A stretch of 64,000 nucleotides of DNA from assembly GCA_014240455.1 (NCBI GenBank), contig JAAZWY010000003.1, positions 1,327 to 65,326 of the forward strand, in the 5' to 3' direction. The number at the start of each line of letters is the position of its first letter. Positions within the stretch are counted from its first letter, which is position 1. Made by a program: the position numbers and the translations under genes. Positions 22,374 through 39,766 of the stretch are shown here, piece by piece. This DNA comes from Nanobdellota archaeon. GTDB taxonomy: Archaea; Nanobdellota; Nanobdellia; UBA10117; ARS21. The notes beneath the pieces are model-generated. The model did no database searches. It was not told where the DNA came from and was given only the letters and a program-made list of their open reading frames with translations.

Positions 22374-24629
22374 ATGGCTTCCAAAAATCCGTATCGAATT
22401 GTAGAAGAACCTGGTCAGAGAATTCTTGAGATTGATTATTCAAAAAATGTATTAACACCTTCAATTGAATCAAGCGAACCAGTTATGGCAGATACAATAA
22501 ACAAACTAATCAAAACTGGAAAGGTTTCTCAAATAATGTTCAAACAACAAGAAGATTACATTTATCCTCTTGATCAGACAACAATGCTATTAGAAATTGC
22601 AAACCTAATATCTGAATTCATAGATCGAACAAAACTACTATCTGAGGATTTCATAAAAGTTGCAGACGATACAAATCAATATTCAGACCGAATGGAATTT
22701 CTAAAATCTGCAATTAACTACGGATTAAGAGAAGATCCAATTGCATCATATCTAAGAGTAGTAACAAGATTACATTCTGAAAAAGCAAAGATGGATCTAA
22801 AAGACAATCTGAGAAAAGATTCACTACAAATATTTATCACAACTCTAGACACAATACGAGAACGACTAGAAACACTTTCCATACTAAAACTCGCTCAACC
22901 ATATCTACAAGAACACAAACCCGGAAGCAGAAAAATATATTCCAAGTTATTCAATCCAATAATAAAGCCAAATTTTCTCTATGCAAAATTAGTTACAAAA
23001 TTCCCAACTGGAGCTCAAGAATTAGATGCATACAAACTTCCGGACGGATCAAAAGTTGTAATCCTAAGATTACCTGATGAGATCAGACCAGTTTACCACC
23101 TAACACCTCCGGAATTTAATCTAACTGAAGATCGATATTCACTTTTAGGTGAAGCAAAAAGAATTGTGGCAGAACACAAACCACAACAATCAGAATTCAT
23201 AGATCCTCAAAGAACAAGAGAAATCTTCCAATCAGTAGAGCAAGATTTACTTCAAGATCTAAGTACTTCAAGAAGAGTCGAATTGAAAGATGGAGAAATT
23301 GAACAACTCGCACAGATTCTAGTAAGACACACGCTGGGTTTCGGACTGGCAGAAATAATCCTGGGAGATTCAAAAATCCAAGATATTTCAGTAAACGCAC
23401 CATCAAACCTAAATGAAATATCAGTTGTACATCAAGATCACGGAGAATGCATAACAAATATCACTCTAACAAACAAAGAAGTTGAAGGATGGGCAACAAA
23501 ACTCAGATTAATTAGTGGAAGACCTCTTGACGAGGCAAATCCAGTTCTTGATACAAGTCTAACTCTCGCAAATGCAATGGCAAGAGTATCAGCAATCCAA
23601 CCACCGCTTAGTCCTCAAGGATTAGCATTTTCATTCAGAAGACATAGAAGCAGGCCTTGGACTTTTCCATTATTCATAGAAAACAAAATGATGAATCCTC
23701 TGGCAGCAGCACTAATGAGTTTCTTAATCGACGGAGGAAGAACCATCCTGTTTGCAGGAACTCGTTCTTCAGGAAAGACTTCATTACTTTCTGCAGCAAT
23801 AGTAGAATTAATGCGATCTACTAGAATAATTACAGTCGAAGATACATTAGAACTCCCAATAACAAAATATCAAGATCTAAAATATGATATTCAATCCATG
23901 AAAGTTCAATCAGTAATAACTCAAGGAGAATCAGAATTAACTGCAACAGACGGAATCAGAACAAGTCTAAGACTTGGAGACTCAGCACTGATCGTAGGAG
24001 AAGTTCGTTCCAAAGAAGCAGTTGCATTATATGAAGCAATGAGAGTGGGAGCATTAGCAAACGTAGTCATGGGAACAATTCACGGAGATTCACCATATTC
24101 AATTTATGACAGAGTTGTAAACGATCTAGGAGTGCAAAAAACTTCATTCAAAGCAACAGATATAATTATAGTTTCAAATCCAGTAAAGTCCGCCTCAGGT
24201 ATTGGAAAACTAAGACGTGTAATTCAAATTTCAGAAGTTAGAAAAGAGTGGGAAGAGGATCCTCTAAGAGAACACGGGTTTGTAGACTTGATGGTTTATA
24301 ATCCAAAAACCGATACACTTGAACCAACCGATGCATTAATCCAAGGAGAAAGTGTTGTCCTAAAATCAATTGCATCAAGAGTTGCAGAATGGGTCGGTGA
24401 CTGGGACGCAGTTTGGGAAAACATCCAATTAAGAGCAAAAATAAAAGAAAAAATAGTTGAGCTCGGAAAAGAAAATCCAGAAATTCTAGAAGCAGAAATA
24501 ACTATCCAAGCCAATGACATGTTCCACAGAATTAGCGAAGACCTATTTGAAAAAGAAGGTCGTTCAGATCCAGAAAAAATCTATCAAGAATGGGAGGAAT
24601 GGCTGACTTCTAAACTCAGTAAATTATAA
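22374..24629 (+). CDS. type II/IV secretion ATPase (FlaI/GspE/VirB11 family), pilus or archaellum assembly ATPase
   Basis: Walker A GTRSSGKTS, Walker B-like ALIVGEVRSKEA, 751 aa with long N-terminal domain. Confidence 0.85.
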   Translation: MASKNPYRIVEEPGQRILEIDYSKNVLTPSIESSEPVMADTINKLIKTGKVSQIMFKQQEDYIYPLDQTTMLLEIANLISEFIDRTKLLSEDFIKVADDTNQYSDRMEFLKSAINYGLREDPIASYLRVVTRLHSEKAKMDLKDNLRKDSLQIFITTLDTIRERLETLSILKLAQPYLQEHKPGSRKIYSKLFNPIIKPNFLYAKLVTKFPTGAQELDAYKLPDGSKVVILRLPDEIRPVYHLTPPEFNLTEDRYSLLGEAKRIVAEHKPQQSEFIDPQRTREIFQSVEQDLLQDLSTSRRVELKDGEIEQLAQILVRHTLGFGLAEIILGDSKIQDISVNAPSNLNEISVVHQDHGECITNITLTNKEVEGWATKLRLISGRPLDEANPVLDTSLTLANAMARVSAIQPPLSPQGLAFSFRRHRSRPWTFPLFIENKMMNPLAAALMSFLIDGGRTILFAGTRSSGKTSLLSAAIVELMRSTRIITVEDTLELPITKYQDLKYDIQSMKVQSVITQGESELTATDGIRTSLRLGDSALIVGEVRSKEAVALYEAMRVGALANVVMGTIHGDSPYSIYDRVVNDLGVQKTSFKATDIIIVSNPVKSASGIGKLRRVIQISEVRKEWEEDPLREHGFVDLMVYNPKTDTLEPTDALIQGESVVLKSIASRVAEWVGDWDAVWENIQLRAKIKEKIVELGKENPEILEAEITIQANDMFHRISEDLFEKEGRSDPEKIYQEWEEWLTSKLSKL

Positions 24630-24631
24630 TT

Positions 24632-26656
24632 GTGGCAAACGAATTTGAAAAGCGACTAGAAAAAGCTGAAGGTACGTCGGAACAACAGCCACAAATATCT
24701 TACTCGCAAGCATATGAACAATTCAAAGCAGATCAAACAACTGCAATTACTTCAACTTACGAACGTGCAGCAAACTTCGCAGGAAAAATTCTAAAATTAA
24801 AAGTCAAAGAAGCAGACAGAGAAAAACTAGAGCGATACATACAAATGACTCACATGAATATCCAACCAGAGTATGTAAATTCTCTAGCACTACTTTCAGC
24901 AATTCCATTTCTGATCGCAGCAATTGCAACGTTCATCATTACAGACTCAATATTTTTCCCAGCACTTCTATTTGGCTCAGCAATATTTGCATTATATTAT
25001 TTTGCAAATACTCCAAAACACATATATGATTCTTGGAGAGCAAGAGCGTCAGACCAAATAATGCTTACTGTATTGTATATAGTCATTCACATGAAACGAG
25101 ATTCAAATCTCGAAAGAGCAATTTTGTTCGTAGCAAACCAAACAGCACCACCAATTTCATTAGATTTTATGAAAATTCTATGGGATTTTGAAACAAAAAA
25201 ATATAGCACAGTTCAAGAATCGCTTGATGTTTATTTGGAAACTTGGAAAGAATCAGAACCGGCATTTGTTGATGCCATGCATTTAGTAGAATCCTCCTTG
25301 GCTCAACCAAATTCAGAACAAGCAAGAAAAACATTGGATAAGGCCAATGATGTAATTACTCAAGGAATCCAAGATAACATGACTCACTTCGCGCACAATC
25401 TAAAAAACCCAGTACAAATGATTCACATGCTTGGAATCGTTCTTCCATTATTGATGCTTGTAATGCTTCCAATGATTGGTGCGTTCCTAGCAGATAGCAT
25501 TAATGCAGCACAGTTAATTACTATTTACAACGTAGTACTTCCAATATTCGTATTCATCACTGCGAGAAATATAATTGCAGTTCGGCCGGGCGGAGCAAGC
25601 GTACAAAACAAGCGATTAATTGAAGCAGCACCGAAAGCAGGAGCAAAACCGCTAGTATTCTCTGCAGCAGTATTTACAATAATTGTTCTACCTGCAATCT
25701 TAGTACTCGCATCAATAATAACTTCGGGAAACTGGGAAACATTAAAGTTTGAGAATTCAGTATTCTTTCTAACGCTCGCAATAATTTTTGCAACAGGTTT
25801 AGCAGCATATGTTTACTTCCATTTCAAAAATAAAGACTTAATTAAATTAAAAGGTAAGATTGAAAATATAGAAGATCAATTCTCCTCAGCAATATTCCAA
25901 CTTGGAAATAGAATCGGAGAAAACATTCCGGCAGAAGCAGCATTCGGACACGTAGCAGAAAACATGAAAGGTAGTGAAATAGCAAAATTCTTTGAAATAG
26001 TTGATTCAAATATACGACAGAGTGGAATGACTCTAGACGATGCAATTTTTGACCCAAAAAACGGAGCCAGTAATTTATACCCTTCAGAATTAATAGATTC
26101 TATCATGAAACTGCTCTTAGAAGCAGTTAAGAAAAGCCCAAAAGTGGCAGCAGAATCGATGACTTCTTTGTCAAAATACCTACAAAAAATGCATCAAGTT
26201 AAGGAAAGAATGACTGATTTGCTTTCAGATACACTTTCATCGATGAGAATGCAGGCCTCATTCCTCGCACCACTAGTTTCAGCACTAGTTGTAAGCCTTT
26301 CAGTACTAATAACTCGAGTATTAATGAATTTAACTTCTCAACTTGATACGCTCCAAACTTCAGGAACGGGAGATGCAGGACTTGGATTCGGAACAGGATT
26401 AGCCTCAATTTTCAAAGTTGAAGCGGCAATGCCTCCATATTTGTTACAATTAATGGTCGGATTTTATATAATTCAAGTAGTATTCTTGCTCAGCTATGCG
26501 CTCTCAGGAATTGTAAAGGGTCCAGGAAAGATAGATTTCCAATGGACTTTTTCTCAAAATATTCTAAGAAGTACGCTTCTCTACTGCGGACTAACATTAG
26601 TAGGAACAATAATATTCTCATCCCTAGCATTCATTGTAACAGCTGCAGTCGCATAA
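24632..26656 (+). CDS. FlaJ/TadC/GspF-family polytopic platform membrane protein
   Basis: 674 aa, two groups of TM helices separated by cytoplasmic domains, immediately downstream of ATPase. Confidence 0.8.
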   Translation: MANEFEKRLEKAEGTSEQQPQISYSQAYEQFKADQTTAITSTYERAANFAGKILKLKVKEADREKLERYIQMTHMNIQPEYVNSLALLSAIPFLIAAIATFIITDSIFFPALLFGSAIFALYYFANTPKHIYDSWRARASDQIMLTVLYIVIHMKRDSNLERAILFVANQTAPPISLDFMKILWDFETKKYSTVQESLDVYLETWKESEPAFVDAMHLVESSLAQPNSEQARKTLDKANDVITQGIQDNMTHFAHNLKNPVQMIHMLGIVLPLLMLVMLPMIGAFLADSINAAQLITIYNVVLPIFVFITARNIIAVRPGGASVQNKRLIEAAPKAGAKPLVFSAAVFTIIVLPAILVLASIITSGNWETLKFENSVFFLTLAIIFATGLAAYVYFHFKNKDLIKLKGKIENIEDQFSSAIFQLGNRIGENIPAEAAFGHVAENMKGSEIAKFFEIVDSNIRQSGMTLDDAIFDPKNGASNLYPSELIDSIMKLLLEAVKKSPKVAAESMTSLSKYLQKMHQVKERMTDLLSDTLSSMRMQASFLAPLVSALVVSLSVLITRVLMNLTSQLDTLQTSGTGDAGLGFGTGLASIFKVEAAMPPYLLQLMVGFYIIQVVFLLSYALSGIVKGPGKIDFQWTFSQNILRSTLLYCGLTLVGTIIFSSLAFIVTAAVA

Positions 26657-26695
26657 CACAAAAACTATATAAAAACCCGCGCGCATAATACAACA

Positions 26696-27133
26696 ATGTC
26701 AAAGCGCGCTCAAATTAGTATGAACACAATCGTGTATGTATCAATCGCACTACTTGTTCTAATATTAATTGTCGCATTTACGACTGGTGGACTTGGAAAC
26801 CTATTTGGGCAGGTTGGAGAGACAGGCCCGGGTGAACTTGATTCAGCAAAAGCTCGTTGTACGACAATATGTAACTCACTGAAAACTGAAGTAGCAACAA
26901 GCGGACATTCTGGATGGACAACTTCACAATACTGTACTGAAGAATTTAGCATCGACATCGACGGAAGCGGAGATATTGACGCTAATGAAATAATTAATTG
27001 TGACGATGTACCAATCTCAACAGCGTGTTCAACAACTTCTTCCACTGCACTTGGAACTTTGTCATTGACAGAAGTTGAATGTAATCCTGCCAAATATTCA
27101 GACGCACTAGACGGATTAAAGACCGGAGCATAA
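26696..27133 (+). CDS. class III signal peptide (type IV pilin-like) protein, Cys-rich
   Basis: MSKRAQ|ISMNTIVYVSIALLVLILIVAF prepilin-like N-terminus. Confidence 0.65.
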   Translation: MSKRAQISMNTIVYVSIALLVLILIVAFTTGGLGNLFGQVGETGPGELDSAKARCTTICNSLKTEVATSGHSGWTTSQYCTEEFSIDIDGSGDIDANEIINCDDVPISTACSTTSSTALGTLSLTEVECNPAKYSDALDGLKTGA

Positions 27134-27134
27134 T

Positions 27135-27482
27135 ATGAAAAAAGGTCAATTGAGTATCAATACAATTGTTGTAACAATAATCGCACTAGCAGTTTTAATC
27201 ACACTAATACTTTTCTTCACTGGAAAGTTCGCAGACTTTTCACAAGGAGTTTCGGAGTTCGACCAAGAAGATACAACATCTGAAGCAGGATGCCAAGTAG
27301 CTTGTAATCTTGAAAAGTCTGGAGCCGGAACACCGTTTACTGACAAGCCAGAATGTGCACCCTTAGTACCTGATTGTGATTTACCAGAAGATTCAGGACA
27401 ATCTTCAAGTCCTTCCGCGCCAGCACCTTCAGGTTCTTCACCTGATGATTCAGGCTCAACCTCCGAAACAATATCATCGTAA
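27135..27482 (+). CDS. class III signal peptide pilin-like protein with Ser/Pro-rich tail
   Basis: MKKGQ|LSINTIVVTIIALAVLITLILFF; C-terminal SSSPSAPAPSGSSPDDSGSTSE. Confidence 0.7.
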   Translation: MKKGQLSINTIVVTIIALAVLITLILFFTGKFADFSQGVSEFDQEDTTSEAGCQVACNLEKSGAGTPFTDKPECAPLVPDCDLPEDSGQSSSPSAPAPSGSSPDDSGSTSETISS

Positions 27483-27520
27483 CTGCCTAAACTATTTATA
27501 TCACAATAACTTCTCTAATT

Positions 27521-27625
27521 ATGAAAGGACAAACTAATCCAATGGCTTGGGTTTCAATGCTTATTCTCGCAATCGTTGTAGTAGTCATTGGTATAATGAT
27601 TGTAAAAAATGGATTATTTCAATAA
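27521..27625 (+). CDS. 34-aa class III signal peptide-only mini-pilin
   Basis: MKGQTNPMAWVSMLILAIVVVVIGIMIVKNGLFQ; below ORF-track size cutoff. Confidence 0.4.
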   Translation: MKGQTNPMAWVSMLILAIVVVVIGIMIVKNGLFQ

Positions 27626-28613
27626 ACGCGGAGGAGTAAATTTTCAAGTTGTAGCAATAGTTATGGCAATCGTTAGTTTCGGAGTTGCAATAATGATATA
27701 CGCAGGTGTTGGAGATGTTGTTATGGAGAATGCAGATTTTAATTGCATTGTCGGAAATCGACTAGCAAATTTAGCAGGATCAACATCAAATCCTTGCCGA
27801 ACAACCCTCGCAACAATTGAGCAAATTGATTTCAAGGAAGATTTAACTGTAAATCATTTAGAATGTCCTCAAATAAGTAGCACAGGTTGGGACATAAAAA
27901 CAGTAGCAAAGAATTGCGGAGCAGTAAAACTGGCAGACAAAGGAGTAATATGCTGGATAAATTATTTGAGTGGAGAAGGAACTCTCCAAACTTCAACCTG
28001 CTATAATTTATGTATGAAACCGTCTTACGGAAGTATTGAAGTCAAAGATTCCGAAGGAGTAATTCCACTGGAATTCACGGGATTAACTGCAGAAAATCTG
28101 AAGATATTTGAAGACGATGGATTTAATTCCAAAAATCCACAACATTTGAGAAATCTAAAAGACACATCTGAAAGATTAGAACTATCTCTAACTACCGAAG
28201 GAATAGAATACAAAAAACTTCGAAGCGGAGATTTAACAATAGTAGTTGAGATTCCATTCCAAGATATTTATGTTTCAGACATTGCTTATGTTTTTGAAGA
28301 AGAGCAAACAAGCACAGGCGGAAACCGAGGAGAACGCTACACAGATAAAATCAGCAAAGACAATCTTCGAATGAATACCGTTTCATATTATGATCAAGGA
28401 CCTTTTGACTTTGACACAAACACATTCAGACCAAGTACCGACAATGATGAACTGTTCACTTTCAACCAAGATGAATCTTGGATAATTCAGTATCAAGACT
28501 CCGAAGATTGGGCAAGAGTTCCTTTCCTTGGAGAAGCTTCAGACATAAGTGGTTATTGGGATACAGATATCTCTGAAGATTCTCTGAACTACGGATACAA
28601 CGGCGTCTGCTAA
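27609..28613 (+). CDS. pilin-like protein with large Cys-containing globular domain
   Basis: MDYFNKRGG|VNFQVVAIVMAIVSFGVAIMIYAG. Confidence 0.55.
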   Translation: MDYFNKRGGVNFQVVAIVMAIVSFGVAIMIYAGVGDVVMENADFNCIVGNRLANLAGSTSNPCRTTLATIEQIDFKEDLTVNHLECPQISSTGWDIKTVAKNCGAVKLADKGVICWINYLSGEGTLQTSTCYNLCMKPSYGSIEVKDSEGVIPLEFTGLTAENLKIFEDDGFNSKNPQHLRNLKDTSERLELSLTTEGIEYKKLRSGDLTIVVEIPFQDIYVSDIAYVFEEEQTSTGGNRGERYTDKISKDNLRMNTVSYYDQGPFDFDTNTFRPSTDNDELFTFNQDESWIIQYQDSEDWARVPFLGEASDISGYWDTDISEDSLNYGYNGVC

Positions 28614-28645
28614 AGTTTTTATATCTCAAAGGATTCTCATAATCT

Positions 28646-28795
28646 ATGCGACGAGCTCAAGCCAACTGGCAAGTTATCACTCTATTGATTGCAGTCATAT
28701 TTTTGCTAATTTTCATAGGATTCGTAGTTGCACTGAAAGGAGGTTCAACTGAGTTAGTAGATAAAATCGGAAACTCAATAAGAAATCTAATATAA
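28646..28795 (+). CDS. 49-aa class III signal peptide mini-pilin
   Basis: MRRAQ|ANWQVITLLIAVIFLLIFIGFVVAL; not in ORF track. Confidence 0.4.
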   Translation: MRRAQANWQVITLLIAVIFLLIFIGFVVALKGGSTELVDKIGNSIRNLI

Positions 28796-28947
28796 TGGAA
28801 CTAGCACTCAAGCAAATCATCATGATAATTATTGGAATTGTAATTGCAACACTAATAATTCTCTTCGTTCTAGGAAAAATCGGGGTTGAAGGAAGTATAA
28901 CTCAAACAATTCTTGATTTAATGAGCTCGGCAGGAGAAGGAGTATGA
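28795..28947 (+). CDS. 50-aa single-TM peptide
   Basis: MELALKQIIMIIIGIVIATLIILFVLG; 1-nt overlap with upstream stop and downstream start. Confidence 0.35.
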   Translation: MELALKQIIMIIIGIVIATLIILFVLGKIGVEGSITQTILDLMSSAGEGV

Positions 28948-29543
28948 TTAAAGATTTAATCGGAACAATATTAGGAAGAAAAGACCCAATGTACCGATTC
29001 ATTTATTATCATTCATTCAAACGATTCTTTCTAACATATTTCTTATTTGCAACAGTATTTGCCGCACTAAAAGTTATAGATGCGTATGCATTAGATCGCG
29101 TAGTTCCTGGAATCTGGTCACTAGATTTTTATTTATTATCCCTGAGCATAATACCTCTAACACTAATTGCATTGGGAATGATTGTATCAATTTCTTCAAT
29201 ACTTATATTCATAACAGCAAAAGTTCTAAAAAAACAAGTAAATTTTGCACAACTATTTTTTGCAATGCATTCAATAATCCCATTTTTCCTAATAATAAAA
29301 CTACTTATGACTTTATCAGTTCTAGCTTACGGAACAACATTCTTAGTATTATTCTTCAACATAATGATTATTCCAGCAGTTTTATACTTCCTATTCATAA
29401 TGGCAAAGACTACAAGTTATTTCACAACAATGTCACTAGGACTGTCAACTCTAACAATAATAACTATAATGCTAGTATTTGTCGTAGCACTATACTTGGC
29501 ATATATTTACATGACTGAGTTAGTAACAGCGAGTTTAATATGA
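28944..29543 (+). CDS. polytopic membrane protein of unknown function inside pilin operon
   Basis: 199 aa, ~6 TM; no GxGD/A24 peptidase motif. Confidence 0.45.
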   Translation: MIKDLIGTILGRKDPMYRFIYYHSFKRFFLTYFLFATVFAALKVIDAYALDRVVPGIWSLDFYLLSLSIIPLTLIALGMIVSISSILIFITAKVLKKQVNFAQLFFAMHSIIPFFLIIKLLMTLSVLAYGTTFLVLFFNIMIIPAVLYFLFIMAKTTSYFTTMSLGLSTLTIITIMLVFVVALYLAYIYMTELVTASLI

Positions 29544-30973
29544 AAAAAGGTCAACAAAATTACTTTATGATTGTAGTGATAATAGCAGTTTTATCACTTG
29601 TAGTTGGAATAATACTATTTGTGAATCTTGGAGGACAATTAAGAGAAAACCAAGATGTTAATGACGCATTTTGCAAATCAAAGATTGACGCACTAAGTAA
29701 AGACCTAGAACCTGAATTAACTTCAGCATGGGGTGACGCGCTACAAAACGTATTCAAGTCTTTCAGAGCATCATGTACGACACAAACAGAAGTAGTTGAT
29801 CCTCAGAACTGGGATGCTTGTGACTCATCATTCAAAGCATTGTCAAAAACAGAACCCACGGCAGCAGCAACAAATTGTGCAATGCAACAAGTTTCAGATA
29901 AGGTTCAACGATGTTGGGAAATGTCAGGAGAAGGAAGACGTACTGCATTTTCCTGGGCATGTTTCAATGTAGTAATTTCAGAAGCAAGTGAAACTCCTGA
30001 AGTAAGCAGTTATACTGAATTCAAAAATCAAATAATAAAATCATTCAACTGTCCACTATTTGACGGAACATGTAAAGACTATGCAAGAGACTCAATTGAT
30101 CCTGCAACAATTCTTGCAGCATATAATAATCTAATAGATATAACTGAATTATCAACTAAAAGTAAGATAGATTTCTGTAGAATAACAGAATTGAGTCAAG
30201 ATGATCTATCAACTGAACAAGAAATGTATGAAACTGAATTGATAAACAAACGCATTGAAGAAATTTATTCTGAATTAATTAATTCAAATGTAAACTCAGT
30301 ATTAGAAAAATACGTAGTGGATAAAATGGTTGAACACGGAGATTCAGAAATAGATTGCACTTTGAATACTCTAACTACTGAAGTAAAGTCAAACTTAGAA
30401 CAAATTGAGGAATATAATTCAGACCTAGAACCCTTTGAAAACTCAGTATTAAGAAAATATAATTCGGCACACAATTCTGAGTTATCGGAACTACCTTTCC
30501 AGCTAATGAAAGATACAAGACTTGAAACAGAAACTATAACCTTCACAGAACTCGAACTAAAAAACTTCATGAAGAACATACCAATTCAAGAACAAAGTAT
30601 AAGTTATTGTGATTCAATATCTTACAAGGGAAAAGATTGTGAAGATAGAGTAGAATATTATCCCAACGGATTTAAATTGAAACAAAATAAATTATTCTCA
30701 ATTGAATATTGTGGAGATAGACTCCCTTTCGGATCAAGCCTAGTGGCAACTTCAGTTTGTGAACAAGGAGATGACCAAAGAAGAATACTAATTTCAGATA
30801 GTCCCACAGGTGGAGGATCAAGACTAATAAATGAGAACTTGGACTACAATTGCCCAATCTTAGAAACTGCAGCAGGATTGGAATTACCTTTCATAGAAAC
30901 CGGAATATCAAATCCATTTGGCGCAGCAGAAACAATCTGTAAGAAAGGAGTAGTAAGAACACTAACTTCATAA
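29540..30973 (+). CDS. large Cys-rich class III signal peptide pilin-like protein
   Basis: MKKGQ|QNYFMIVVIIAVLSLVVGIILF; 477 aa, >20 Cys. Confidence 0.7.
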   Translation: MKKGQQNYFMIVVIIAVLSLVVGIILFVNLGGQLRENQDVNDAFCKSKIDALSKDLEPELTSAWGDALQNVFKSFRASCTTQTEVVDPQNWDACDSSFKALSKTEPTAAATNCAMQQVSDKVQRCWEMSGEGRRTAFSWACFNVVISEASETPEVSSYTEFKNQIIKSFNCPLFDGTCKDYARDSIDPATILAAYNNLIDITELSTKSKIDFCRITELSQDDLSTEQEMYETELINKRIEEIYSELINSNVNSVLEKYVVDKMVEHGDSEIDCTLNTLTTEVKSNLEQIEEYNSDLEPFENSVLRKYNSAHNSELSELPFQLMKDTRLETETITFTELELKNFMKNIPIQEQSISYCDSISYKGKDCEDRVEYYPNGFKLKQNKLFSIEYCGDRLPFGSSLVATSVCEQGDDQRRILISDSPTGGGSRLINENLDYNCPILETAAGLELPFIETGISNPFGAAETICKKGVVRTLTS

Positions 30974-31013
30974 CACAGTCATCTTTTTATAAAATCGAGA
31001 CAATAATTACACT

Positions 31014-31202
31014 ATGAAATCAAGGAAAGGAATGTCTCTACCGATTGAAACAGTAATAATTATGATTATCGCAATTGTTGTCCTAGCATTAGTATTACTA
31101 TTTGTTACAGGAAAATGGACGGATCTAACGGGAACGCTTGGAGGACTTGAAACTGGAATCTCAGACGGAGCAACAGAAAGCGTAGAACAAATATTCGAAT
31201 GA
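31014..31202 (+). CDS. 62-aa minor pilin-like protein
   Basis: MKSRKG|MSLPIETVIIMIIAIVVLALVLLFV. Confidence 0.55.
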   Translation: MKSRKGMSLPIETVIIMIIAIVVLALVLLFVTGKWTDLTGTLGGLETGISDGATESVEQIFE

Positions 31203-31735
31203 AAAAAGGAGACGCATTACTTACAATTGTTTTTAGTATAATTGGCGCAATCATGATTCTCATTATCGGAACTCATGTATTCTCAACAACACTAAATATC
31301 GTAGATGATGAAGCATTAGCAGTAACTTCAATGAGACAAATTGCAACAGCGGCAAATTCTGCAAAATCGTTTGACATTTGTGCATCAGCAGAACTAAATC
31401 TGGCAAGAAGTTATCAAATTATTGCAAAAGGTAACATGCTAGAATTATATGAACAGAAAATGGCAGAGGAAGAACCAACGCTAGTGGACAGCATAACCAT
31501 CAATTCAGAATCAAGAGTAATGTGTAATTATGATGATACTCCTCAATGTAGAAATGAACGGCAGTCAGCTGAACGAGGAATGTCAATAAATCCAAATTTC
31601 GATAGAGAAATAGATCAAGTATTTTGCGTTTGTAAATACGGAGCAATAGTTAACGGAAATCAAGATTTTATAGTATATCCAAAGTCTGGATGGGAACCAA
31701 CTTGTGATGATCCAGTAAGTAGTTATCAAGCATGA
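31199..31735 (+). CDS. class III signal peptide pilin-like protein
   Basis: MKKGD|ALLTIVFSIIGAIMILIIG. Confidence 0.65.
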   Translation: MKKGDALLTIVFSIIGAIMILIIGTHVFSTTLNIVDDEALAVTSMRQIATAANSAKSFDICASAELNLARSYQIIAKGNMLELYEQKMAEEEPTLVDSITINSESRVMCNYDDTPQCRNERQSAERGMSINPNFDREIDQVFCVCKYGAIVNGNQDFIVYPKSGWEPTCDDPVSSYQA

Positions 31736-33555
31736 AATTAAATAAACGAGGACAGGGAACAAACCTAGTTTTAATAGTCGGAGTTATACTGGCAACAGCA
31801 ATTTCAGTATTTGCAGTATATACAACTTTTGATGATGTAGTACAAAATATGGTAACTGGAGATCCAGAATTGGCAGCAAGAGAATTAGCGTCATATATGG
31901 ATATTGCATCCTCATCTCCAAATGAGATCACGATATATTCATCAACACCAATAACTGTTGCAGGATTTCCGGCATATGGAACTGTTTTATTTAACGCGGA
32001 AGACCGAGAAATCAGAGTACATCCATATCCTCAAGATTTAATGCAAGCTCAAATACTAAAAAGTATGTATGGAGAAATTTCAGCAGAGGAAGCTTATAGT
32101 GTAATGGCACTATATGGTTATCGAAGTAGCAATGTTGTTTTGAGAGCACAATCTAGATTAGCAGGAAGTATAGCTCAAGATTTGGGCGCAAGAGCTGCAA
32201 GAGATCAGGCACTGCGCGATGTACAAGAAGCACTTTCTGATGATTTCTTTGGAAATTTAGATATGATTGGAAGGGACGCAATATCTGACGCCGCTTACGA
32301 TCTCTCACCAACAAACGCGAAAAAATACTTAGATCTTGAAGAGAAATATGCCAACAAATTAGCAAAAAAACAAGCAAAAGCAATACGTGCGGCAAGAGCC
32401 GGATCAAGATTAAGTAAATTAAAAAGAGCGGCAGCATGGGTATGGCCACCAAGTCTAGCAAGAAAAGCAGTAACGGGTACATCATGGGTTTCAAGTAAAA
32501 TAGGACTCACCAAGTATGCTAGCGGAGTTGTAAGGAAACTAGAATCTAAAGCAGCTAGACGTGCAGCAGTAAAGGCAGAAAAAGCAGTTGCAAGAGGCGC
32601 ATCAGTTACAATAATGTTAGATATTGGTGAAACTGCAGAAGATGTTGCATGCGCAATCCCGACGCCACCTTCACAAGTAGTATGTAAGGCAAGTTCAGTA
32701 ATAAGGAGAGGAATATTTATGGTATTCATGTTAGCAGAAGGAGCGTGGACTTTCTGGCCAATACATCATTCAATAACTAATGCAAGAGATGCAACTGAAC
32801 AAATTGACGATAAATTCGGAACTTTCGAGTTTCATACTGGAAATATACCAATTCAAGCAGAATTACCTAATTGTGAAAGCGAACCTTATGCAGTAAATAT
32901 GGATTTACCGATGGGCGAAGCGCTAGAAGCAATAGGATTACAAGATATTCTAAGTGCACAAATGAATATGCCAATGTCCGAATCAACAGAGGAAATCAAA
33001 ACTTATTCAGGAATTAAAAATAGACAAAATGAATGTTTCGATTCACATAATTGGTATCTAGATGATGGCGGATTAATTACAGACATATTATTTCTGGACA
33101 ATTATGCAATAACGCATCCTTGGACTTTGGGCGTGGCAGCACCCTTCGCAGCATGTACTGGAATTGGAATTGTCAAGGAACCAAGCTCTGGAAGTTCATG
33201 TATTATGATGATGGAAGCAAGTCTACTTGGTGCATGGTCAAACCAAGAAAACTCATGGACTACTGGATGGAAAGAAAATTGGAAAGGAAACACTTTCATG
33301 CTCGCAATAACTGCAGCAATGGTAACTGGGAAACCAATAAAATTCTTCAAGAGTAAAGAAGGAGCAATAGCATTAGGGCTATACAATTTATTACCGATGG
33401 ATTCAGTAAACTTATTCTCCTACATTTCAGGAGCGGATGAATTAATAGATGCAGATAAAGAATATTATATGGAAGATCCATTAGTAATATCCATAAGCAA
33501 AGAATACGACGAGAGTTCAGATGAATACGTCTTGGTGGTGGACAAAGCAATATGA
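31732..33555 (+). CDS. 607-aa pilin-like protein (possible tip/adhesin) with basic Ala/Lys/Arg-rich segment
   Basis: MKLNKRGQ|GTNLVLIVGVILATAISVFAVY. Confidence 0.65.
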   Translation: MKLNKRGQGTNLVLIVGVILATAISVFAVYTTFDDVVQNMVTGDPELAARELASYMDIASSSPNEITIYSSTPITVAGFPAYGTVLFNAEDREIRVHPYPQDLMQAQILKSMYGEISAEEAYSVMALYGYRSSNVVLRAQSRLAGSIAQDLGARAARDQALRDVQEALSDDFFGNLDMIGRDAISDAAYDLSPTNAKKYLDLEEKYANKLAKKQAKAIRAARAGSRLSKLKRAAAWVWPPSLARKAVTGTSWVSSKIGLTKYASGVVRKLESKAARRAAVKAEKAVARGASVTIMLDIGETAEDVACAIPTPPSQVVCKASSVIRRGIFMVFMLAEGAWTFWPIHHSITNARDATEQIDDKFGTFEFHTGNIPIQAELPNCESEPYAVNMDLPMGEALEAIGLQDILSAQMNMPMSESTEEIKTYSGIKNRQNECFDSHNWYLDDGGLITDILFLDNYAITHPWTLGVAAPFAACTGIGIVKEPSSGSSCIMMMEASLLGAWSNQENSWTTGWKENWKGNTFMLAITAAMVTGKPIKFFKSKEGAIALGLYNLLPMDSVNLFSYISGADELIDADKEYYMEDPLVISISKEYDESSDEYVLVVDKAI

Positions 33556-34052
33556 AATCAAAAAGAGGAACAGGTCAGGCAGAAATGATATTATATTTAT
33601 TCTTCGCAGTGATCTTCATTATGGTAGGAATCTTATCTGTAAAAGCATATTTACTAAATGCGGAATTGGATAAAGAATTACATCTTTCAAATCTAGATTT
33701 TGGAATAATTGGGAACAGAATGATTGCATCAGATAATTGTCTAAGTGCAAGACAAACCATAACACTAACAGACGGAGAAGACAGTTACAATGTTAATTTT
33801 GTAGAAACTGGAACGCTTATAAAAAACAGAATAACAGATCCAATAATAAACGAATGTCTAAGAGGCTTTGATAAAGAAAAGTATCACTTAACTTTTTCTG
33901 AACTTTCAGAAGACGGAACAAGAACGGTTCTTGGAAATGAAGAAGGGTATGGTTCACTGGATTGTAAGAAATCAAATAGAAAAGGAGAGTTCTTAATTGG
34001 ACTTAAAGGTTCATCAACAAGATTGGGAGTATTTGAAATATGTATAGATTGA
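33552..34052 (+). CDS. class III signal peptide pilin-like protein
   Basis: MKSKRGTGQ|AEMILYLFFAVIFIMVGILSV. Confidence 0.6.
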   Translation: MKSKRGTGQAEMILYLFFAVIFIMVGILSVKAYLLNAELDKELHLSNLDFGIIGNRMIASDNCLSARQTITLTDGEDSYNVNFVETGTLIKNRITDPIINECLRGFDKEKYHLTFSELSEDGTRTVLGNEEGYGSLDCKKSNRKGEFLIGLKGSSTRLGVFEICID

Positions 34053-34582
34053 AAAAAGGACAAATAAATTTCATGGTAGAATTAATTATCGGCGCTGTGC
34101 TAATTCTACTAATTGTAGCAAGTAGTTATTATTTTGCTGAGAATTCAAACATAAAAGCAACAGCAAAAGTATATGCAGAGAATACTGAAACAAACTGCTA
34201 TACTACACTAAATACTTTAACGCAATCAGATCAATTCCTGAATGGAAAAACATCAACTGAACTGTCTGACCGAACAAACACTATTGAAAAATTAAAGACT
34301 ATCCGAGACAAATTAGAATTGTTTCTTCCCAACTCAGACTTCAGTCTCACGCTATTTGATAAATGCGAAGATTTCAGAGGTGAGTGCGACAAAGATGAAG
34401 AGAGCATAATAATGTCTGGACAAGAACGAGCAAAAGCAAGTTCTACAGGATTTAATCCACCACCTTCCCAGTCAGAATCATGTAACTATCCAATCCCAAT
34501 TGAATGCGATCCTCAAGATTATGTGGATGCTCCAACAGAAACACAATGTAAAATGTTTATAGAAATGAGGTTGAATTACTAA
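34040..34582 (+). CDS. class III signal peptide pilin-like protein
   Basis: MYRLKKGQ|INFMVELIIGAVLILLIVA. Confidence 0.65.
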   Translation: MYRLKKGQINFMVELIIGAVLILLIVASSYYFAENSNIKATAKVYAENTETNCYTTLNTLTQSDQFLNGKTSTELSDRTNTIEKLKTIRDKLELFLPNSDFSLTLFDKCEDFRGECDKDEESIIMSGQERAKASSTGFNPPPSQSESCNYPIPIECDPQDYVDAPTETQCKMFIEMRLNY

Positions 34583-35277
34583 TGAAAAGAGGACAGATGC
34601 TAATCATCACTGCAATCGTTTTACTGGTCTCCTTAGGCGCAGTTCTAATGTGGAATGAAGGAGGTGTAACAAAAACTGTAACAATAGGACAAACTCAATC
34701 AGAAATATTTGAGACGTTCTCAATCGGGCAAATAATTAATAATTACATAATTGATTCATCTGAAATTTCAAGATGTAATGCAATGCACTCAACAGCTAAA
34801 GCTTGGGAGGACGGGACTTTGCCAACATCATCAAAAATAAAAGAATACTTTGAAGACAGATATAGAGAATCTCTGTTAGTATATATGGCAGATTTTCCTC
34901 CAATATCTGACACGTCCTTACAATCTGAGAACTCATTATATACAAACTTATTTTTCCAAACAGAGTTTGATTATGAAAATAATTTAATCAAAGGAGGACC
35001 GCAGAAAGTAAGATATAGTGGTGAAGAAGAAACAGAAATTTTCATAGATTTCCTAGAAATACTTAGCAAGGACGGATATATGTATAAAATAAGACCTGTT
35101 TATTCAATAGAATTTCAAACTGAATACTTCGATTATTTTGAAACAATGAGAGAATGGTCTTCCGGAACACCACAAGGATTCAAAGACGTAGGAATGATTG
35201 GAGAAACAAACCAAGTTCTTGCAACAACCGATTTGAAGTGTTTAGGGAAAAATGTACAGATAATTTTCACTCCTTAA
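34582..35277 (+). CDS. class III signal peptide pilin-like protein
   Basis: MKRGQ|MLIITAIVLLVSLGAVLMW. Confidence 0.65.
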   Translation: MKRGQMLIITAIVLLVSLGAVLMWNEGGVTKTVTIGQTQSEIFETFSIGQIINNYIIDSSEISRCNAMHSTAKAWEDGTLPTSSKIKEYFEDRYRESLLVYMADFPPISDTSLQSENSLYTNLFFQTEFDYENNLIKGGPQKVRYSGEEETEIFIDFLEILSKDGYMYKIRPVYSIEFQTEYFDYFETMREWSSGTPQGFKDVGMIGETNQVLATTDLKCLGKNVQIIFTP

Positions 35278-35314: not shown

Positions 35315-35989
35315 ATGGCAAAGCTCAGACCTGCAAGTTGTCACCGAAGAATTAAACGAGCATACACTCGTACATCGAAGTATAGACGACTATCTTACAT
35401 CAAGGGAGCGCCAAACCATAAAATTATTCACTTTGACTCAGGAAACAGACGATATGAAATGTTTCCAAAAACTATAGTTCTAAATGGAACTAAAGCAATA
35501 AATCTAAGACACAATGCAATTGAAGCAGCAAGAATTGTAGTCACAAGACAGATGTCAAAGACTGTTGGAAAATTCGCATTTGGATTAAAGCTAAAAGTTT
35601 TCCCACATCATATTATTAGAGAAAATCCAATCGCTATGGGAGCAGGAGCAGACCGAATGTCTCAAGGAATGCGTTCAGCTTTTGGTAAAACTATATCTCG
35701 TGCAGCAAGATTAAAACCAGATCAAACAATAATTCAACTTTATGTTCAAGAAGAAAATATTAAAGATGCAAAACGAGCATTAGAAAAAGCATCAAAGAAA
35801 TTTGGAATTTCTTGCACAATTAGAACACTAGATAATCCATTATATGTTGGAGCAGAAGCAGCAGCATTAATTAAACCTAAACTCAGAGAAGCAGCACCAA
35901 AAGCAGAAGAAGAAGCTACTGAAGAAACAGAAACAGCTGAAGAATCTGAAACTGAGACTGAAGAAAAACCAGCAAAAGCAACTGCTTAA
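35315..35989 (+). CDS. rpl10e: ribosomal protein L10e (uL16) with acidic C-terminal extension
   Basis: MAKLRPASCHRRIKRAYTRTSKYRRLSYIKGAP...IRENPIAMGAGADRM. Confidence 0.9.
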   Translation: MAKLRPASCHRRIKRAYTRTSKYRRLSYIKGAPNHKIIHFDSGNRRYEMFPKTIVLNGTKAINLRHNAIEAARIVVTRQMSKTVGKFAFGLKLKVFPHHIIRENPIAMGAGADRMSQGMRSAFGKTISRAARLKPDQTIIQLYVQEENIKDAKRALEKASKKFGISCTIRTLDNPLYVGAEAAALIKPKLREAAPKAEEEATEETETAEESETETEEKPAKATA

Positions 35990-36034: not shown

Positions 36035-37597
36035 ATGGTTAGATGGCTGAATGAAGTTTCAAAATCCAACACGGAAGAAGTTGGGGAGAAGGCAGCACTT
36101 TTGGGTGAGATGATTAAATTCGGTTTTCCAGTCCCACGTGGTTTTGTAATTTCTTACGATGAGTTTGATAAAGCCATGGTTGAGCTTGGACCAGAAATAC
36201 AATCAATTTTATCTATAGCAAATCCAGACAACTTCAACTCAATTCTTACAGCATCATCAAAAATAAAAGAACTATTCAAAAACTATCAATTTTCAAATGA
36301 TTTTGAAAGAGAAGTAAAAGATTATTATTCAAAACTTCACATTGATAAGAACGAATACGGAAATGTAAATTCTGACGCATTCAATTTCATCAAAGCAGGA
36401 AGGGAACTACCGTTTGTATCTGTCAGAGTTTCAAATGCATCATCAACACCAAAACATTATTCAACTTCATTAAACGTAAAACAAACTCAAGAAATTCTTT
36501 CAGCAATAAGAAAAGCATGGGCATCAATTTATTCACCATACTCTATTCTTTACCGAAGATCAAACAACTCACCCTTTCCAAGAGCAGCAATACTAATTCA
36601 GGAAATGATTAACTCATCAAAATCCGGAGATTTATTTTCAATAAATCCTATAACTGGAAACAAAGATCAGACTGTAATTCAAGGACGTTGGGGACTAAGT
36701 CTAAAAAGTTCTCCGGGAGCAAGCATATTTATTTGCGACAAACAATCATCAAAAATTCTAGAATCTTATGAATCAAAACCAACAAAATATTACACAAAAG
36801 ATCCGCAACATGGAAACACGGCAATAAGAACTCTTGAAGAAGAATTCAAAGACCTCCCAGTTTTAGGATCAAGAGAAGTAGAGTTACTAACAAGAATTGC
36901 AACAGATGCAGAAAACAAATTAGGTTTTCCAGTAAATATTGAATGGTCAATAGAAAAGAGAAAGTTTCATCTGATTCAAGTCAGACCAGCATCAAACTTT
37001 TTCAAAGGACCGGTATTTTCAAATCAGTTTCCAAACCAATTCGATAAAACAATGGCACGAGGATTACCTGCTTCACCAGGATTTGTTACAAATAAAACCG
37101 TAATAATAAATTCACCAAACGATTTTCACAAATTCCAACCAAACAATATTCTAATAACAGATTCTTTCAACGGACAAATACTTCCACTAATGCTTCAATC
37201 TTCAGGAGTAATTTTCAAGAATGAAGATCTTTCATCCTTCGGAGCAGTAATTGCAAGAGACTTTGAAAAGCCATGTATAGTAAAAGCCAAAATAGACATC
37301 AGTTCAGACCTTGAGCAAGCAGAATTAAACGCATCAACTGGAAAGTTATACGGACCGGAGCAAGCTACAGAAACTCAATTTGAATCCGAAGAATCAACTG
37401 AGACAATAAACTTGGAAGGAATATACAAAAGTCTGGAGGAAGTAGAGCGAGAGCTAACGACACTAAATGCACAATTAACTGAAGCAAGAAGTCAAAATCT
37501 CCTATCGGAATCAGACAGAGAAAAGTCAAAACTAATTTCAGATTTAGAATGGGAAGTAAGAGAACTAAAAGAAAAACTTAGTCGGCATCTACAGTAA
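36035..37597 (+). CDS. PEP synthase/PPDK-like protein (ATP-grasp N-domain + swivel-like domain), catalytic His absent, C-terminal coiled coil
   Basis: VGEKAALLGEM..GFPVPRGFVI nucleotide-binding motif; swivel region reads LSSFGAVIARDFEKPCIV where canonical TxHAAIxARExGIPxVVG has His (F in place of H); no PEP/pyruvate TIM-barrel domain. Confidence 0.65.
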   Translation: MVRWLNEVSKSNTEEVGEKAALLGEMIKFGFPVPRGFVISYDEFDKAMVELGPEIQSILSIANPDNFNSILTASSKIKELFKNYQFSNDFEREVKDYYSKLHIDKNEYGNVNSDAFNFIKAGRELPFVSVRVSNASSTPKHYSTSLNVKQTQEILSAIRKAWASIYSPYSILYRRSNNSPFPRAAILIQEMINSSKSGDLFSINPITGNKDQTVIQGRWGLSLKSSPGASIFICDKQSSKILESYESKPTKYYTKDPQHGNTAIRTLEEEFKDLPVLGSREVELLTRIATDAENKLGFPVNIEWSIEKRKFHLIQVRPASNFFKGPVFSNQFPNQFDKTMARGLPASPGFVTNKTVIINSPNDFHKFQPNNILITDSFNGQILPLMLQSSGVIFKNEDLSSFGAVIARDFEKPCIVKAKIDISSDLEQAELNASTGKLYGPEQATETQFESEESTETINLEGIYKSLEEVERELTTLNAQLTEARSQNLLSESDREKSKLISDLEWEVRELKEKLSRHLQ

Positions 37598-37919
37598 ACA
37601 AGACATCATCACCGTCAACATCAAATATTTTTACTATTGCACCTGCATCTAACCACGCATGAGCATAATTTACTGCTGCAAAAGAATTAACCCAATCATT
37701 ACTTTCTTTGAAGTGATTAGCATCAGATAAATAACTACGTGCCATTTCCAGATACTTTTCACCAATCTTAACTTCACGCGAAGACAAACCTTCAGAAAGT
37801 TTAACCTTTTCAAGAGCTTGAGCTGTAAGATTCAAATATTTATCCAATTTCTCAGCAGTTATTTCTTTCATAACAGAACTCCCGCTTTCACCATTATAAA
37901 TCCTCCGAAGAGCTAACAT
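37578..37919 (-). CDS. conserved-looking hypothetical protein (alpha/beta)
   Basis: 113-aa ORF, clean start; no motif recognised. Confidence 0.35.
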   Translation of the reverse strand: MLALRRIYNGESGSSVMKEITAEKLDKYLNLTAQALEKVKLSEGLSSREVKIGEKYLEMARSYLSDANHFKESNDWVNSFAAVNYAHAWLDAGAIVKIFDVDGDDVLFTVDAD

Positions 37920-38311: not shown

Positions 38312-38578
38312 ATGATCGAGAAATATGATATCGAGGTTCAGAAGATTGTCGACGAAGCAAAGAAAATCGAAGCAAAGACAATTGTAATTCAACTACCTGA
38401 CGGTCTCAAAAATGACGCAACAAAACTTCAAACTCAATTAGAAGAATTAACTGGAGCAACAATAGTTTTCTGGGCAGGTTCAAATTTCGGAGCATGCGAC
38501 ATTCCAACAAATTTACCAAAAGAATACGATATGTTGGTGGCAATCGGTCATGCGTTTGCGTACAACATTAAAGATTGA
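38312..38578 (+). CDS. dph2: Dph2 N-terminal domain (2-(3-amino-3-carboxypropyl)histidine synthase), split gene part 1
   Basis: YDIEVQKIVDEAKKIEAKTIVIQLPDGLK...FWAGSNFGACDIP...VAIGH matches first Cys-bearing domain of archaeal Dph2; ends TGA at 38576-38578. Confidence 0.65.
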   Translation: MIEKYDIEVQKIVDEAKKIEAKTIVIQLPDGLKNDATKLQTQLEELTGATIVFWAGSNFGACDIPTNLPKEYDMLVAIGHAFAYNIKD

Positions 38579-38620: not shown

Positions 38621-38914
38621 ATGGCTTTTCTAGGAATGGAAGGAACACTTGGAACCGGAATCGGTCTCCTCCTAGGATTAGCGTTGCTTAAGTATAGCGG
38701 ATATGTTGATGCTGTACGAAAGGAGCTTAGTTATATCGCGGCTGGTGCAATGTTTTTGCTACTTAGCTCAGTGACTGGAACTGGGCTTGACGGAATTGCA
38801 GGCTTCGAACAAGCCATTCTTTACATAAATATAATTTTTGTAGTAGTTGCATTCCTGTTAACGTTAATCGGTGCATTGTTAATGGCAGTGCAAATATTTT
38901 CAAAGATCAGATAA
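38621..38914 (+). CDS. small 3-TM membrane protein inserted between the Dph2 halves
   Basis: 97 aa hydrophobic ORF with its own terminator hairpin. Confidence 0.45.
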   Translation: MAFLGMEGTLGTGIGLLLGLALLKYSGYVDAVRKELSYIAAGAMFLLLSSVTGTGLDGIAGFEQAILYINIIFVVVAFLLTLIGALLMAVQIFSKIR

Positions 38915-39016: not shown

Positions 39017-39766
39017 ATGAGAACTCTATTTATTGAGGCATACATAAAAGAAGATCTTGAACCACTTTTAGATAATATAATCAAGACAGTAAAAGAAAAT
39101 AAAATTGGATTAGTAACCACAGTTCAACATATCAAAAATCTCGAAAAAGCAAAAGAGTATCTTGAGAAAGCAGGAAAGAATGTTCATGTCGGAACTCCGG
39201 CAAAGAACCTCAAACCAAAACAAGGAATATACGCATTCCATCCAGGTCAACTTTTAGGTTGCGACGCATCAGCAGCAATCGATATCGAAGAAGATGTAGA
39301 TGCTTTCATATTCTTGGGAACGGGAGAATTCCATCCTTTATTCATCGCATTCAATTCAGAGAAACCAATTTGGCTAGCAAACCCGCTAACTCAAACAGTA
39401 GAACTTCTTCCAGAGGAACGCAGACGAAAATTCTTTGCAAAACAAGCAGCAAGAATGCATCACGCAGAAGAATCCAAATGCTACGGAATAATCGTATCAA
39501 CCAAACCAGGTCAAGTATATTTGAATATGGCAAAACGGATGAAAGAACAAGCAGAAAAACTCGGTAAAAAGGCAGTAATCCTTCTTTCAGATACCATTAC
39601 TCCAAACGATTTGATGAATTATCACGAAGTAGATTGTTTTGTTAATACGGCATGCCCAAGAATCGTCGAAGACCAACCCTTCTATCCAAAAACAATGGTG
39701 AATGGCACCGAATTAAAGCAGATTTTCAACAAGCTAAGCGCTGAAACCAAAGCAAAATCTTTATAA
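39017..39766 (+). CDS. dph2: Dph2 domains 2-3, split gene part 2
   Basis: LLGCDASA and NTACPRI Cys motifs of Dph2 [4Fe-4S] domains 2 and 3. Confidence 0.7.
   Translation: MRTLFIEAYIKEDLEPLLDNIIKTVKENKIGLVTTVQHIKNLEKAKEYLEKAGKNVHVGTPAKNLKPKQGIYAFHPGQLLGCDASAAIDIEEDVDAFIFLGTGEFHPLFIAFNSEKPIWLANPLTQTVELLPEERRRKFFAKQAARMHHAEESKCYGIIVSTKPGQVYLNMAKRMKEQAEKLGKKAVILLSDTITPNDLMNYHEVDCFVNTACPRIVEDQPFYPKTMVNGTELKQIFNKLSAETKAKSL

Follow-up and report, generated by a model that had tools for sequence, protein, structure and literature searches.

A PEP synthase-like protein with phenylalanine at the catalytic histidine position and a C-terminal two-helix tail in a Nanobdellota archaeon

Phosphoenolpyruvate (PEP) synthase, PpsA (EC 2.7.9.2), is represented by the solved structures 8a8e of P. 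furiosus and 2ols of N. meningitidis and by the protein family models TIGR01418 and NF005057. The archaeal PEP synthase (PPS) assembles into a dimer and a 24-mer through its PEP-binding domain together with a C-terminal helix (bioRxiv 10.1101/2022.08.11.503304). Rifampin phosphotransferase (RPH) and the two-component dikinases HpeHI belong to the same superfamily. They have ATP-grasp and swivel domains, a dedicated substrate-binding domain and no PEP/pyruvate triosephosphate isomerase (TIM) barrel. The ATP-grasp domain of the two-component dikinase is a separate polypeptide, HpeI (PMC12167813). RPH and HpeHI need the swivel His, and its substitution abolishes HpeH activity (PMC4844700, PMC12167813). 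Lys22, Arg117, Thr136 and Glu297 of RPH are experimentally important (PMC4844700). A relative of these enzymes is encoded at 36035..37597 on the forward strand of a 64,000 nucleotide stretch of DNA (the window) from a Nanobdellota archaeon (assembly GCA_014240455.1, contig JAAZWY010000003.1, positions 1,327 to 65,326).

Residues 1-446 of the window protein were homologous to the ATP-grasp and swivel domains of PpsA. The canonical ppsA of a related Woesearchaeon has the same uL16 neighbor and the same FIKAGR insertion. Unlike PpsA the window protein has Phe402 in place of the catalytic His, lacks the TIM barrel and has a deletion in the phosphate-binding loop, and it carries a new acidic linker and tail. 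In contrast to RPH and HpeHI no dedicated substrate-binding domain was seen, the His is absent (the position varies in the family) and there was no partner gene in the window. The equivalents of RPH Lys22, Arg117 and Thr136 are not conserved across the family of proteins carrying the tail. On balance the window gene probably encodes a conserved pseudoenzyme descended from the archaeal ppsA of a Woesearchaeota (DPANN) lineage. It would serve as a nucleotide-sensing or structural scaffold with the tail as an oligomerization or partner module.

Domain content and loss of catalytic residues

The coding sequence (CDS) and its parts were located as follows.

36035..37597, + strand: complete CDS of the dead PEP synthase relative, 520 amino acids plus stop (open reading frame (ORF) list, identical proteins in independent assemblies and substitution rates)
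36074..36994, + strand: ATP-grasp (PPDK_N) domain, residues 14-320, fold kept and catalytic set partly lost (Pfam, Foldseek)
36347..36412, + strand: lineage-specific insertion with FIKAGRE, residues 105-126 (alignments)
36425..36475, + strand: degenerate phosphate-binding loop, residues 131-147, RVSNASSTPKHYSTSLN, with a 6-residue deletion and loss of SFAGQ (alignments against the canonical loop)
37133..37327, + strand: swivel (PEP-utilizers mobile) domain, Pfam residues 367-431 (Pfam, structural model)
37238..37240, + strand: Phe402 codon at the catalytic phospho-histidine position (phmmer and multiple alignments)
37355..37408, + strand: acidic, variable and disordered linker, about residues 441-458 (structural model confidence, charge, substitution rates)
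37409..37594, + strand: C-terminal two-helix tail, residues 459-520 (helices of the structural model, family alignments)

The original prediction for this gene was made from the DNA alone and named an ATP-grasp N-domain and a swivel-like domain. Both were confirmed on profile alignment, with scores above the Pfam cut-offs. PF01326 (PPDK_N) matched residues 14-320 (E 2.9e-46, 158.7 bits compared to a cut-off of 27) and PF00391 (PEP-utilizers) matched residues 367-431 (E 5.6e-7, 29.5 bits compared to a cut-off of 23.1). For the ATP-grasp domain the fold was supported by Pfam and Foldseek, but the catalytic equipment was partly lost and the phosphate loop was 6 residues shorter. PF02896, the PEP/pyruvate TIM barrel, had no Pfam match in the 520 amino acid protein. 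The barrel had been predicted to be gone, and the structural model has two helices instead. The scores for the NCBIfam equivalogs were 192 bits for NF005057 (cut-off 598) and 186 for TIGR01418 (cut-off 740). Only positions 1-468 of about 790 in these PEP synthase models were matched by the window protein.

An AlphaFold2 (AF2) model built from 45 sequences had a predicted local distance difference test score (pLDDT) of 86.5 and a predicted template modeling score of 0.76. It replaced a run on 21 close sequences which was unusable (pLDDT 56). The order in the model was ATP-grasp domain, swivel domain, a disordered acidic stretch at residues 444-457, and helices at 460-486 and 492-519. The strands and helices of the swivel domain extended over about residues 338-440. 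The top Foldseek matches were PPS 2ols, HpeI 9goj and RPH (entries beginning 5hv), and pyruvate phosphate dikinase was also matched. HpeI 9goj was the second-best match in both structure and sequence.

Residues 399-410 read L-S-S-F-G-A-V-I-A-R-D-F. The best solved relative was the Pyrococcus furiosus PPS 8a8e, and in the phmmer alignment against it SSFGAVIARDF aligned with TSHAAIVSREL. This places Phe402 at the phospho-His position. Multiple alignments gave the same placement and Phe402 is invariant across the close clade (21 sequences). The replacement of the His by Phe had been predicted and was borne out, with no alignment putting a His at this position. Further differences were seen against the canonical enzymes. 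The loop which covers the phosphates reads R-V-S-N-A-S-S-T-P-K-H-Y-S-T. The Arg of P-R-A-I is replaced by Tyr169, the Glu of I-I-E-A by Gln216 and the Asp of Q-D-I-E-W by Asn301, while G-L-G-E has become G-L-S-L with Leu223 for the Glu.

Not all of the catalytic set is lost. The important RPH residues were placed on the window protein through an alignment to 5fbs. Lys22, Arg117, Thr136 and Glu297 correspond to Lys19, Arg131, Thr144 and Glu303, and all four are retained. Within the window's own clade Lys19, Arg131, Gln189, Met191, Glu303 and Gln315 are kept. In the close clade 7 of 13 former active-site positions do not vary, compared to 100 of 520 positions overall (Fisher p = 0.005). Tyr169 and Phe402, both new, are among the seven and stay the same over the range of 41-95% identity. 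A residue table was made for 98 relatives, and the canonical ones keep the whole catalytic set (K, R, T, R, E, E, D, E, Q, R). At the level of its sequence the window protein was shown to be incapable of making PEP from pyruvate or of running any His-relay dikinase reaction, because the His, the phosphate loop and the entire PEP/pyruvate domain are lost.

Selection, the two-helix tail and origin from ppsA

The identical protein was present on 23 contigs from independent assemblies, GCA_018650895.1 among them. Twenty-two clusters at 41-95% identity have the same architecture at 474-528 amino acids with intact ORFs, and intact orthologs in Candidatus Woesearchaeota go down to 28% identity. The pairwise ratio of nonsynonymous to synonymous substitution rates (dN/dS) was 0.06-0.2 overall. 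It was 0.03-0.4 in the separate ATP-grasp, inter-domain linker, swivel and tail segments. Where window-type proteins are about 50% identical, identity is 57-75% for the neighboring uL16, DUF357 and Dph2, and 25-38% for the pilins. Judged by these values the window protein evolves somewhat faster than housekeeping genes yet is clearly constrained. The comparisons indicate that the gene is real and under purifying selection.

The linker had a pLDDT below 50 at residues 444-457 and a net charge of -5 over residues 432-458. Its length differs among family members and its dN/dS is the highest of all segments. The tail which follows it is about 60-62 amino acids long and has a regular 3-4 (heptad) hydrophobic spacing. 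Its dN/dS was 0.06-0.16. Arg485, Glu505, Trp506 and Arg509 are invariant in the family alignments, in which the tail motif is K-x-K-L-I-S-E-L-E-W-x-I-R-x-x-K-x-K-L. A hidden Markov model (HMM) search of all six-frame ORFs of the window and 19 loci found no tail outside its own family. The sole matches of the tail profile among 5.8 billion proteins were three contig-edge fragments of the tail-bearing family. A profile search of the PDB gave chance coiled-coil matches only and no significant match. Two other origins of the tail were rejected. MAFFT paired LEWEVRELK with the PPS helix LEVEAIKKVR, as for a relic of the TIM barrel, and hhalign against the full-length relatives gave this a probability of 0.2%. 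A module common to other proteins was ruled out by the HMM and profile searches, which found only the tail's own family.

Distant relatives were collected by a profile search of 1.84 billion representatives, and a repeat protein search with a broad profile found nothing new. The tail family has the FIKAGR insertion, the shortened phosphate loop, the swivel domain and the SELEWxIR helix pair, and has no TIM barrel. All of these characters were found in the window protein, in P0001-P0022 and in P0048-50, 52, 54, 55, 57, 58 and 71. The last nine are the distant members, of 517-638 amino acids and 26-36% identity, which have the window architecture and the tail. All are without the SFAGQ loop and the TIM barrel. 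The His position in the wider tail family is F, L, Y, N, P or, in four cases, H. Scattered lineages have lost the positions equivalent to Lys22, Arg117, Thr136 and Glu297 and the Gln position. Invariant residues in the wide family are limited to Gly, Pro, Ser, Arg123 and tail residues. In a rough neighbor-joining tree, which has no support values and is indicative only, the tail-bearing proteins clustered within a star-like set of degenerate relatives.

Loss of the His was not confined to the tail family. About 19 of the 98 relatives in the residue table are full-length (700-790 amino acids) and without the His, the TIM-barrel Asn-Asp and the Cys. They include P0060 (L022 6001-8316), P0062, P0065, P0067, P0068 (L023 4578-6857), P0070, P0073, P0079, P0094 and P0099. 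Most of these have an intact ATP-grasp catalytic set and at least one is from Candidatus Aenigmatarchaeota. They may still hydrolyze ATP. These full-length proteins of DPANN archaea, for example P0060, P0062 and P0068 of Candidatus Aenigmatarchaeota, can be compared to the window protein. The FIKAGR-type insertion and the loss of the swivel His are common to both, and in places the neighbors are uL16 or DUF357 as for the window gene. In contrast to the window protein they have 700-790 amino acids with a degenerate TIM barrel (Asn-Asp and Cys lost), a mostly intact ATP-grasp set and SFAGQ loop, and no ELEW tail. Their sole annotation is "PEP/pyruvate-binding domain-containing protein."

Other forms were also found. 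Two Woesearchaeota proteins of 420-428 amino acids have the N-domain only (L016 2506-3768 and L017 78-1364) and are strongly degenerate. LNFIKAGRD is kept in them, but neither KSG..F..NP nor the swivel domain remains, and their conserved C-terminus is a different one, ...KVPISFDIKITD..ELK.KL.AIKEFIN.EF. P0059, P0063, P0069 and many other profile matches have 1000-2300 amino acids and combine a single PPDK_N domain with three or four PEP-utilizers swivel domains in tandem. P0056 (1281 amino acids) is a canonical PPS with an intein (LAGLIDADG homing endonuclease) inside the ATP-grasp domain.

Two features upstream of the CDS bear on its origin and expression.

35315..35989, + strand: rpl10e (uL16), immediately upstream of the CDS in window-type loci and likewise upstream of the canonical ppsA in L015
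36000..36012, + strand: promoter-like element AAATGTTTTTAAT with the TATA-like part TTTTTAAT, conserved in 10 loci

Locus L015, from a Woesearchaeota metagenome-assembled genome (MAG), encodes a canonical PPS of 770 amino acids directly downstream of rpl10e. It has the canonical motifs TSHAAIVSRE, SFAGQQ, GSNDLTQ and SICGQ. The insertion LNFIKAGRE, which precedes the R-S-S strand, is common to this enzyme and the window protein. Arg123 within the insertion does not vary anywhere in the tail family, and canonical PPS of the Woesearchaeota type has this Arg as well. The window gene is most likely a degenerate descendant of ppsA, because the canonical ppsA of L015 has the position after uL16 and the LNFIKAGRE insertion in common with it. 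The original prediction of a non-catalytic or repurposed paralog held in its first part. The His, the PEP/pyruvate domain and the phosphate loop are lost, there is purifying selection and the tail is conserved to 28% identity. "Paralog" is probably wrong, as the canonical ppsA of L015 holds the same place.

The promoter-like element is 13 nucleotides long. The core AA..TTTT is invariant in the 10 loci and the commonest form is AAAT[GA][TC]TTTTAAT. Two of the 10 loci have a different upstream gene and keep the box. Past the rpl10e stop codon there is a run of T. From what is generally known of archaeal promoters, the box may serve the gene as a TATA-type promoter of its own and give a leaderless mRNA, because the TATA-like part is centered about 27 nucleotides before the ATG.

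Possible functions of the protein and alternative explanations

The ATP-grasp and swivel folds are kept, while the His, the phosphate loop and the PEP/pyruvate domain are lost. In the proposed mechanism the two-helix tail would replace the PEP-binding domain as an oligomerization or partner-binding module. Because the archaeal PPS oligomerizes through the PEP-binding domain, the tail may have taken over this role once that domain was lost. The old nucleotide pocket would be retained in the window clade as a ligand site without phosphotransfer, with Tyr169 and Phe402 newly fixed. The pocket may still bind a ligand in the close clade because of the excess of invariant active-site positions described above. 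Pseudoenzymes such as the pseudokinases have kept nucleotide binding and lost transfer. The old pocket may bind a ligand in the same manner as these nucleotide-binding pseudokinases; this is an analogy, as the fold is unrelated. The role of the protein would then be that of a scaffold, either sensing nucleotides or purely structural, and not that of a metabolic enzyme. A pseudoenzyme is preferred to an enzyme with a new substrate because the fold and tail are conserved while the catalytic positions drift across the family.

A number of points weigh against this explanation. Nucleotide binding is predicted from sequence and the loop which would cover the phosphates is gone. Ligand binding cannot be the function of the whole family, because the Lys, Arg, Glu and Gln positions decay in its wider members. 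The suggestion of oligomerization comes from the heptads of the tail. The gene may be an extra copy and not a replaced ortholog, the search for ppsA having covered the 64-kb window. The neighborhood yields no functional partner, and the uL16, Dph2, RpoL and TFS surroundings are in large part inherited synteny.

The best surviving alternative is a purely structural remnant with no function for the pocket, in which the folds and the tail alone count, for instance as part of a larger assembly, and the active-site conservation of the close clade reflects a short divergence time. This is unlikely, although it is in keeping with several observations. Catalytic and nucleotide-contact positions vary freely in the wide family, where invariance is confined to Gly, Pro, Ser, Arg123 and tail residues, and even more reduced relatives with only the N-domain exist (L016, L017). 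It does not account for the enrichment of active-site positions among the invariant sites of the close clade, which extends to Tyr169 and Phe402, and no assembly partner is known.

It is somewhat less likely again that the protein is still an enzyme. It would be an ATP-grasp kinase or ligase acting on a new substrate without the His relay, or one component of a split dikinase of the HpeHI kind, with the phospho-His and the substrate site supplied by a partner. Dikinases whose ATP-grasp subunit stands alone are known, and HpeI 9goj was the second-best match. Lys19, Arg131, Gln189/Met191, Glu303 and Gln315 are conserved in the window clade, and several full-length relatives without the His keep the complete ATP-grasp catalytic set. 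Against this the window protein has lost its phosphate-binding loop and has other residues in place of the E in IIEA, the E in GLGE and the D in QDIEW. In the tail family the Lys, Arg, Glu and Gln have disappeared here and there while the fold and tail persist, as would be expected for a non-catalytic protein. The protein has its own swivel domain, but without the His. There was no second swivel or PEP-utilizer gene in the 64-kb window and none adjoining the gene in 20 related loci.

The loss of catalytic residues and of the C-terminal domain would also fit a pseudogene in decay or an artifact of assembly or annotation (a truncated ppsA). This was rejected as highly improbable in view of selection and conservation: many independent assemblies carry an intact ORF of the same architecture, dN/dS is 0.06-0.2, the tail is conserved to 28% identity, the promoter-like box is conserved and the gene sits mid-way in long contigs.

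Gene neighborhood and significance for DPANN archaea

The source lineage belongs to marine DPANN archaea of about 35% G+C. The related loci were in MAGs labeled Candidatus Woesearchaeota, Nanoarchaeota or "DHVE6 group." uL16 was adjacent or nearby in L001-L014, L021 and L022. The downstream neighbor is on the opposite strand.

37578..37919, - strand: DUF357 protein, convergent neighbor with its 3' end overlapping the CDS by 20 nucleotides (ORF list and related loci)

The DUF357 gene is convergent and adjacent in the window clade. It is also adjacent to a distant tail-family member (L018 301-615), and in Candidatus Aenigmatarchaeota it is divergent from a dead full-length PPS at a distance of 47 nucleotides (L023 4207-4530). 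The canonical PPS in L015 has no DUF357 gene beside it. DUF357 is an uncharacterized archaeal family with two hypothetical proteins, 2oo2 and 2pmr, as PDB relatives, and nothing relevant was found in the literature on its function. The recurrent adjacency may reflect either inherited synteny or a genuine association. Neither the window protein nor its DUF357 neighbor had a match in PADLOC, and a role in anti-phage defense was rejected.

A tblastn search of the window for another PPS-like, swivel or TIM-barrel gene found none. The other window genes are for information processing and a type IV pilus-like locus, and the 20 largest of the other ORFs include no central-carbon enzyme. The diphthamide synthase Dph2 (PF01866) is divided between ORFs of 88 amino acids (38312-38578) and 249 amino acids (39017-39766), with a hydrophobic ORF of 97 amino acids (38621-38914) between them. 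The split is common to most of the related loci examined (window clade, L018, L020 and L021), while in L022 Dph2 is in one piece of at least 310 amino acids. The type IV pilus-like locus at 22374-35277 encodes a T2SSE-family ATPase (22374-24629) and a 674 amino acid ORF without a Pfam match. ORFs at 31732, 33552, 34040 and 34582 have N-termini resembling class-III signal peptides (MK..KRGQ or KKGQ followed by a hydrophobic helix). These pilin-like ORFs had no Pfam match and are fast-evolving (25-38% identity where the neighbors have 57-75%). Two probable cell-surface proteins were also encoded, one of 737 amino acids with an S-layer C-terminal domain (PF05124; 3569-5782) and one of 287 amino acids with a lamin-tail domain (PF00932; 1455-2318).

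The window protein can be regarded as a new variant, a pseudoenzyme branch of the PEP synthase/dikinase superfamily with a family-specific tail. No paper on dead PPS derivatives in DPANN or Woesearchaeota was found in a literature search that was not exhaustive. A broader and more tentative proposal is that the DPANN (Woesearchaeota, Aenigmatarchaeota and probably others) contain a large undescribed radiation of dead PPS derivatives in full-length, tail-bearing and N-domain-only forms, so that the PPS N-terminal module would have a second, non-metabolic role in these reduced symbionts. In the window protein this role would have become wholly independent of catalysis, with a scaffold for structure or nucleotide sensing that assembles through the new tail, possibly together with the recurrently adjacent DUF357 protein.

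Automatic pipelines label proteins with PF01326 and PF00391 as "PEP synthase" or "PEP/pyruvate-binding protein." Applied to genomes of Woesearchaeota and other DPANN, such a label would wrongly ascribe the first gluconeogenic step to the organism, and claims on the metabolic dependence or independence of DPANN symbionts rest on such calls. The window gene should not be counted as a PEP synthase in metabolic reconstructions. The series from the canonical ppsA beside rpl10e, through full-length dead copies and truncated proteins with a new tail, to forms with the N-domain only is a good case for enzyme repurposing in reduced genomes. The protein must be useful because it is so well conserved in organisms with genomes of about 1 Mb, and its function could reveal DPANN-specific biology.

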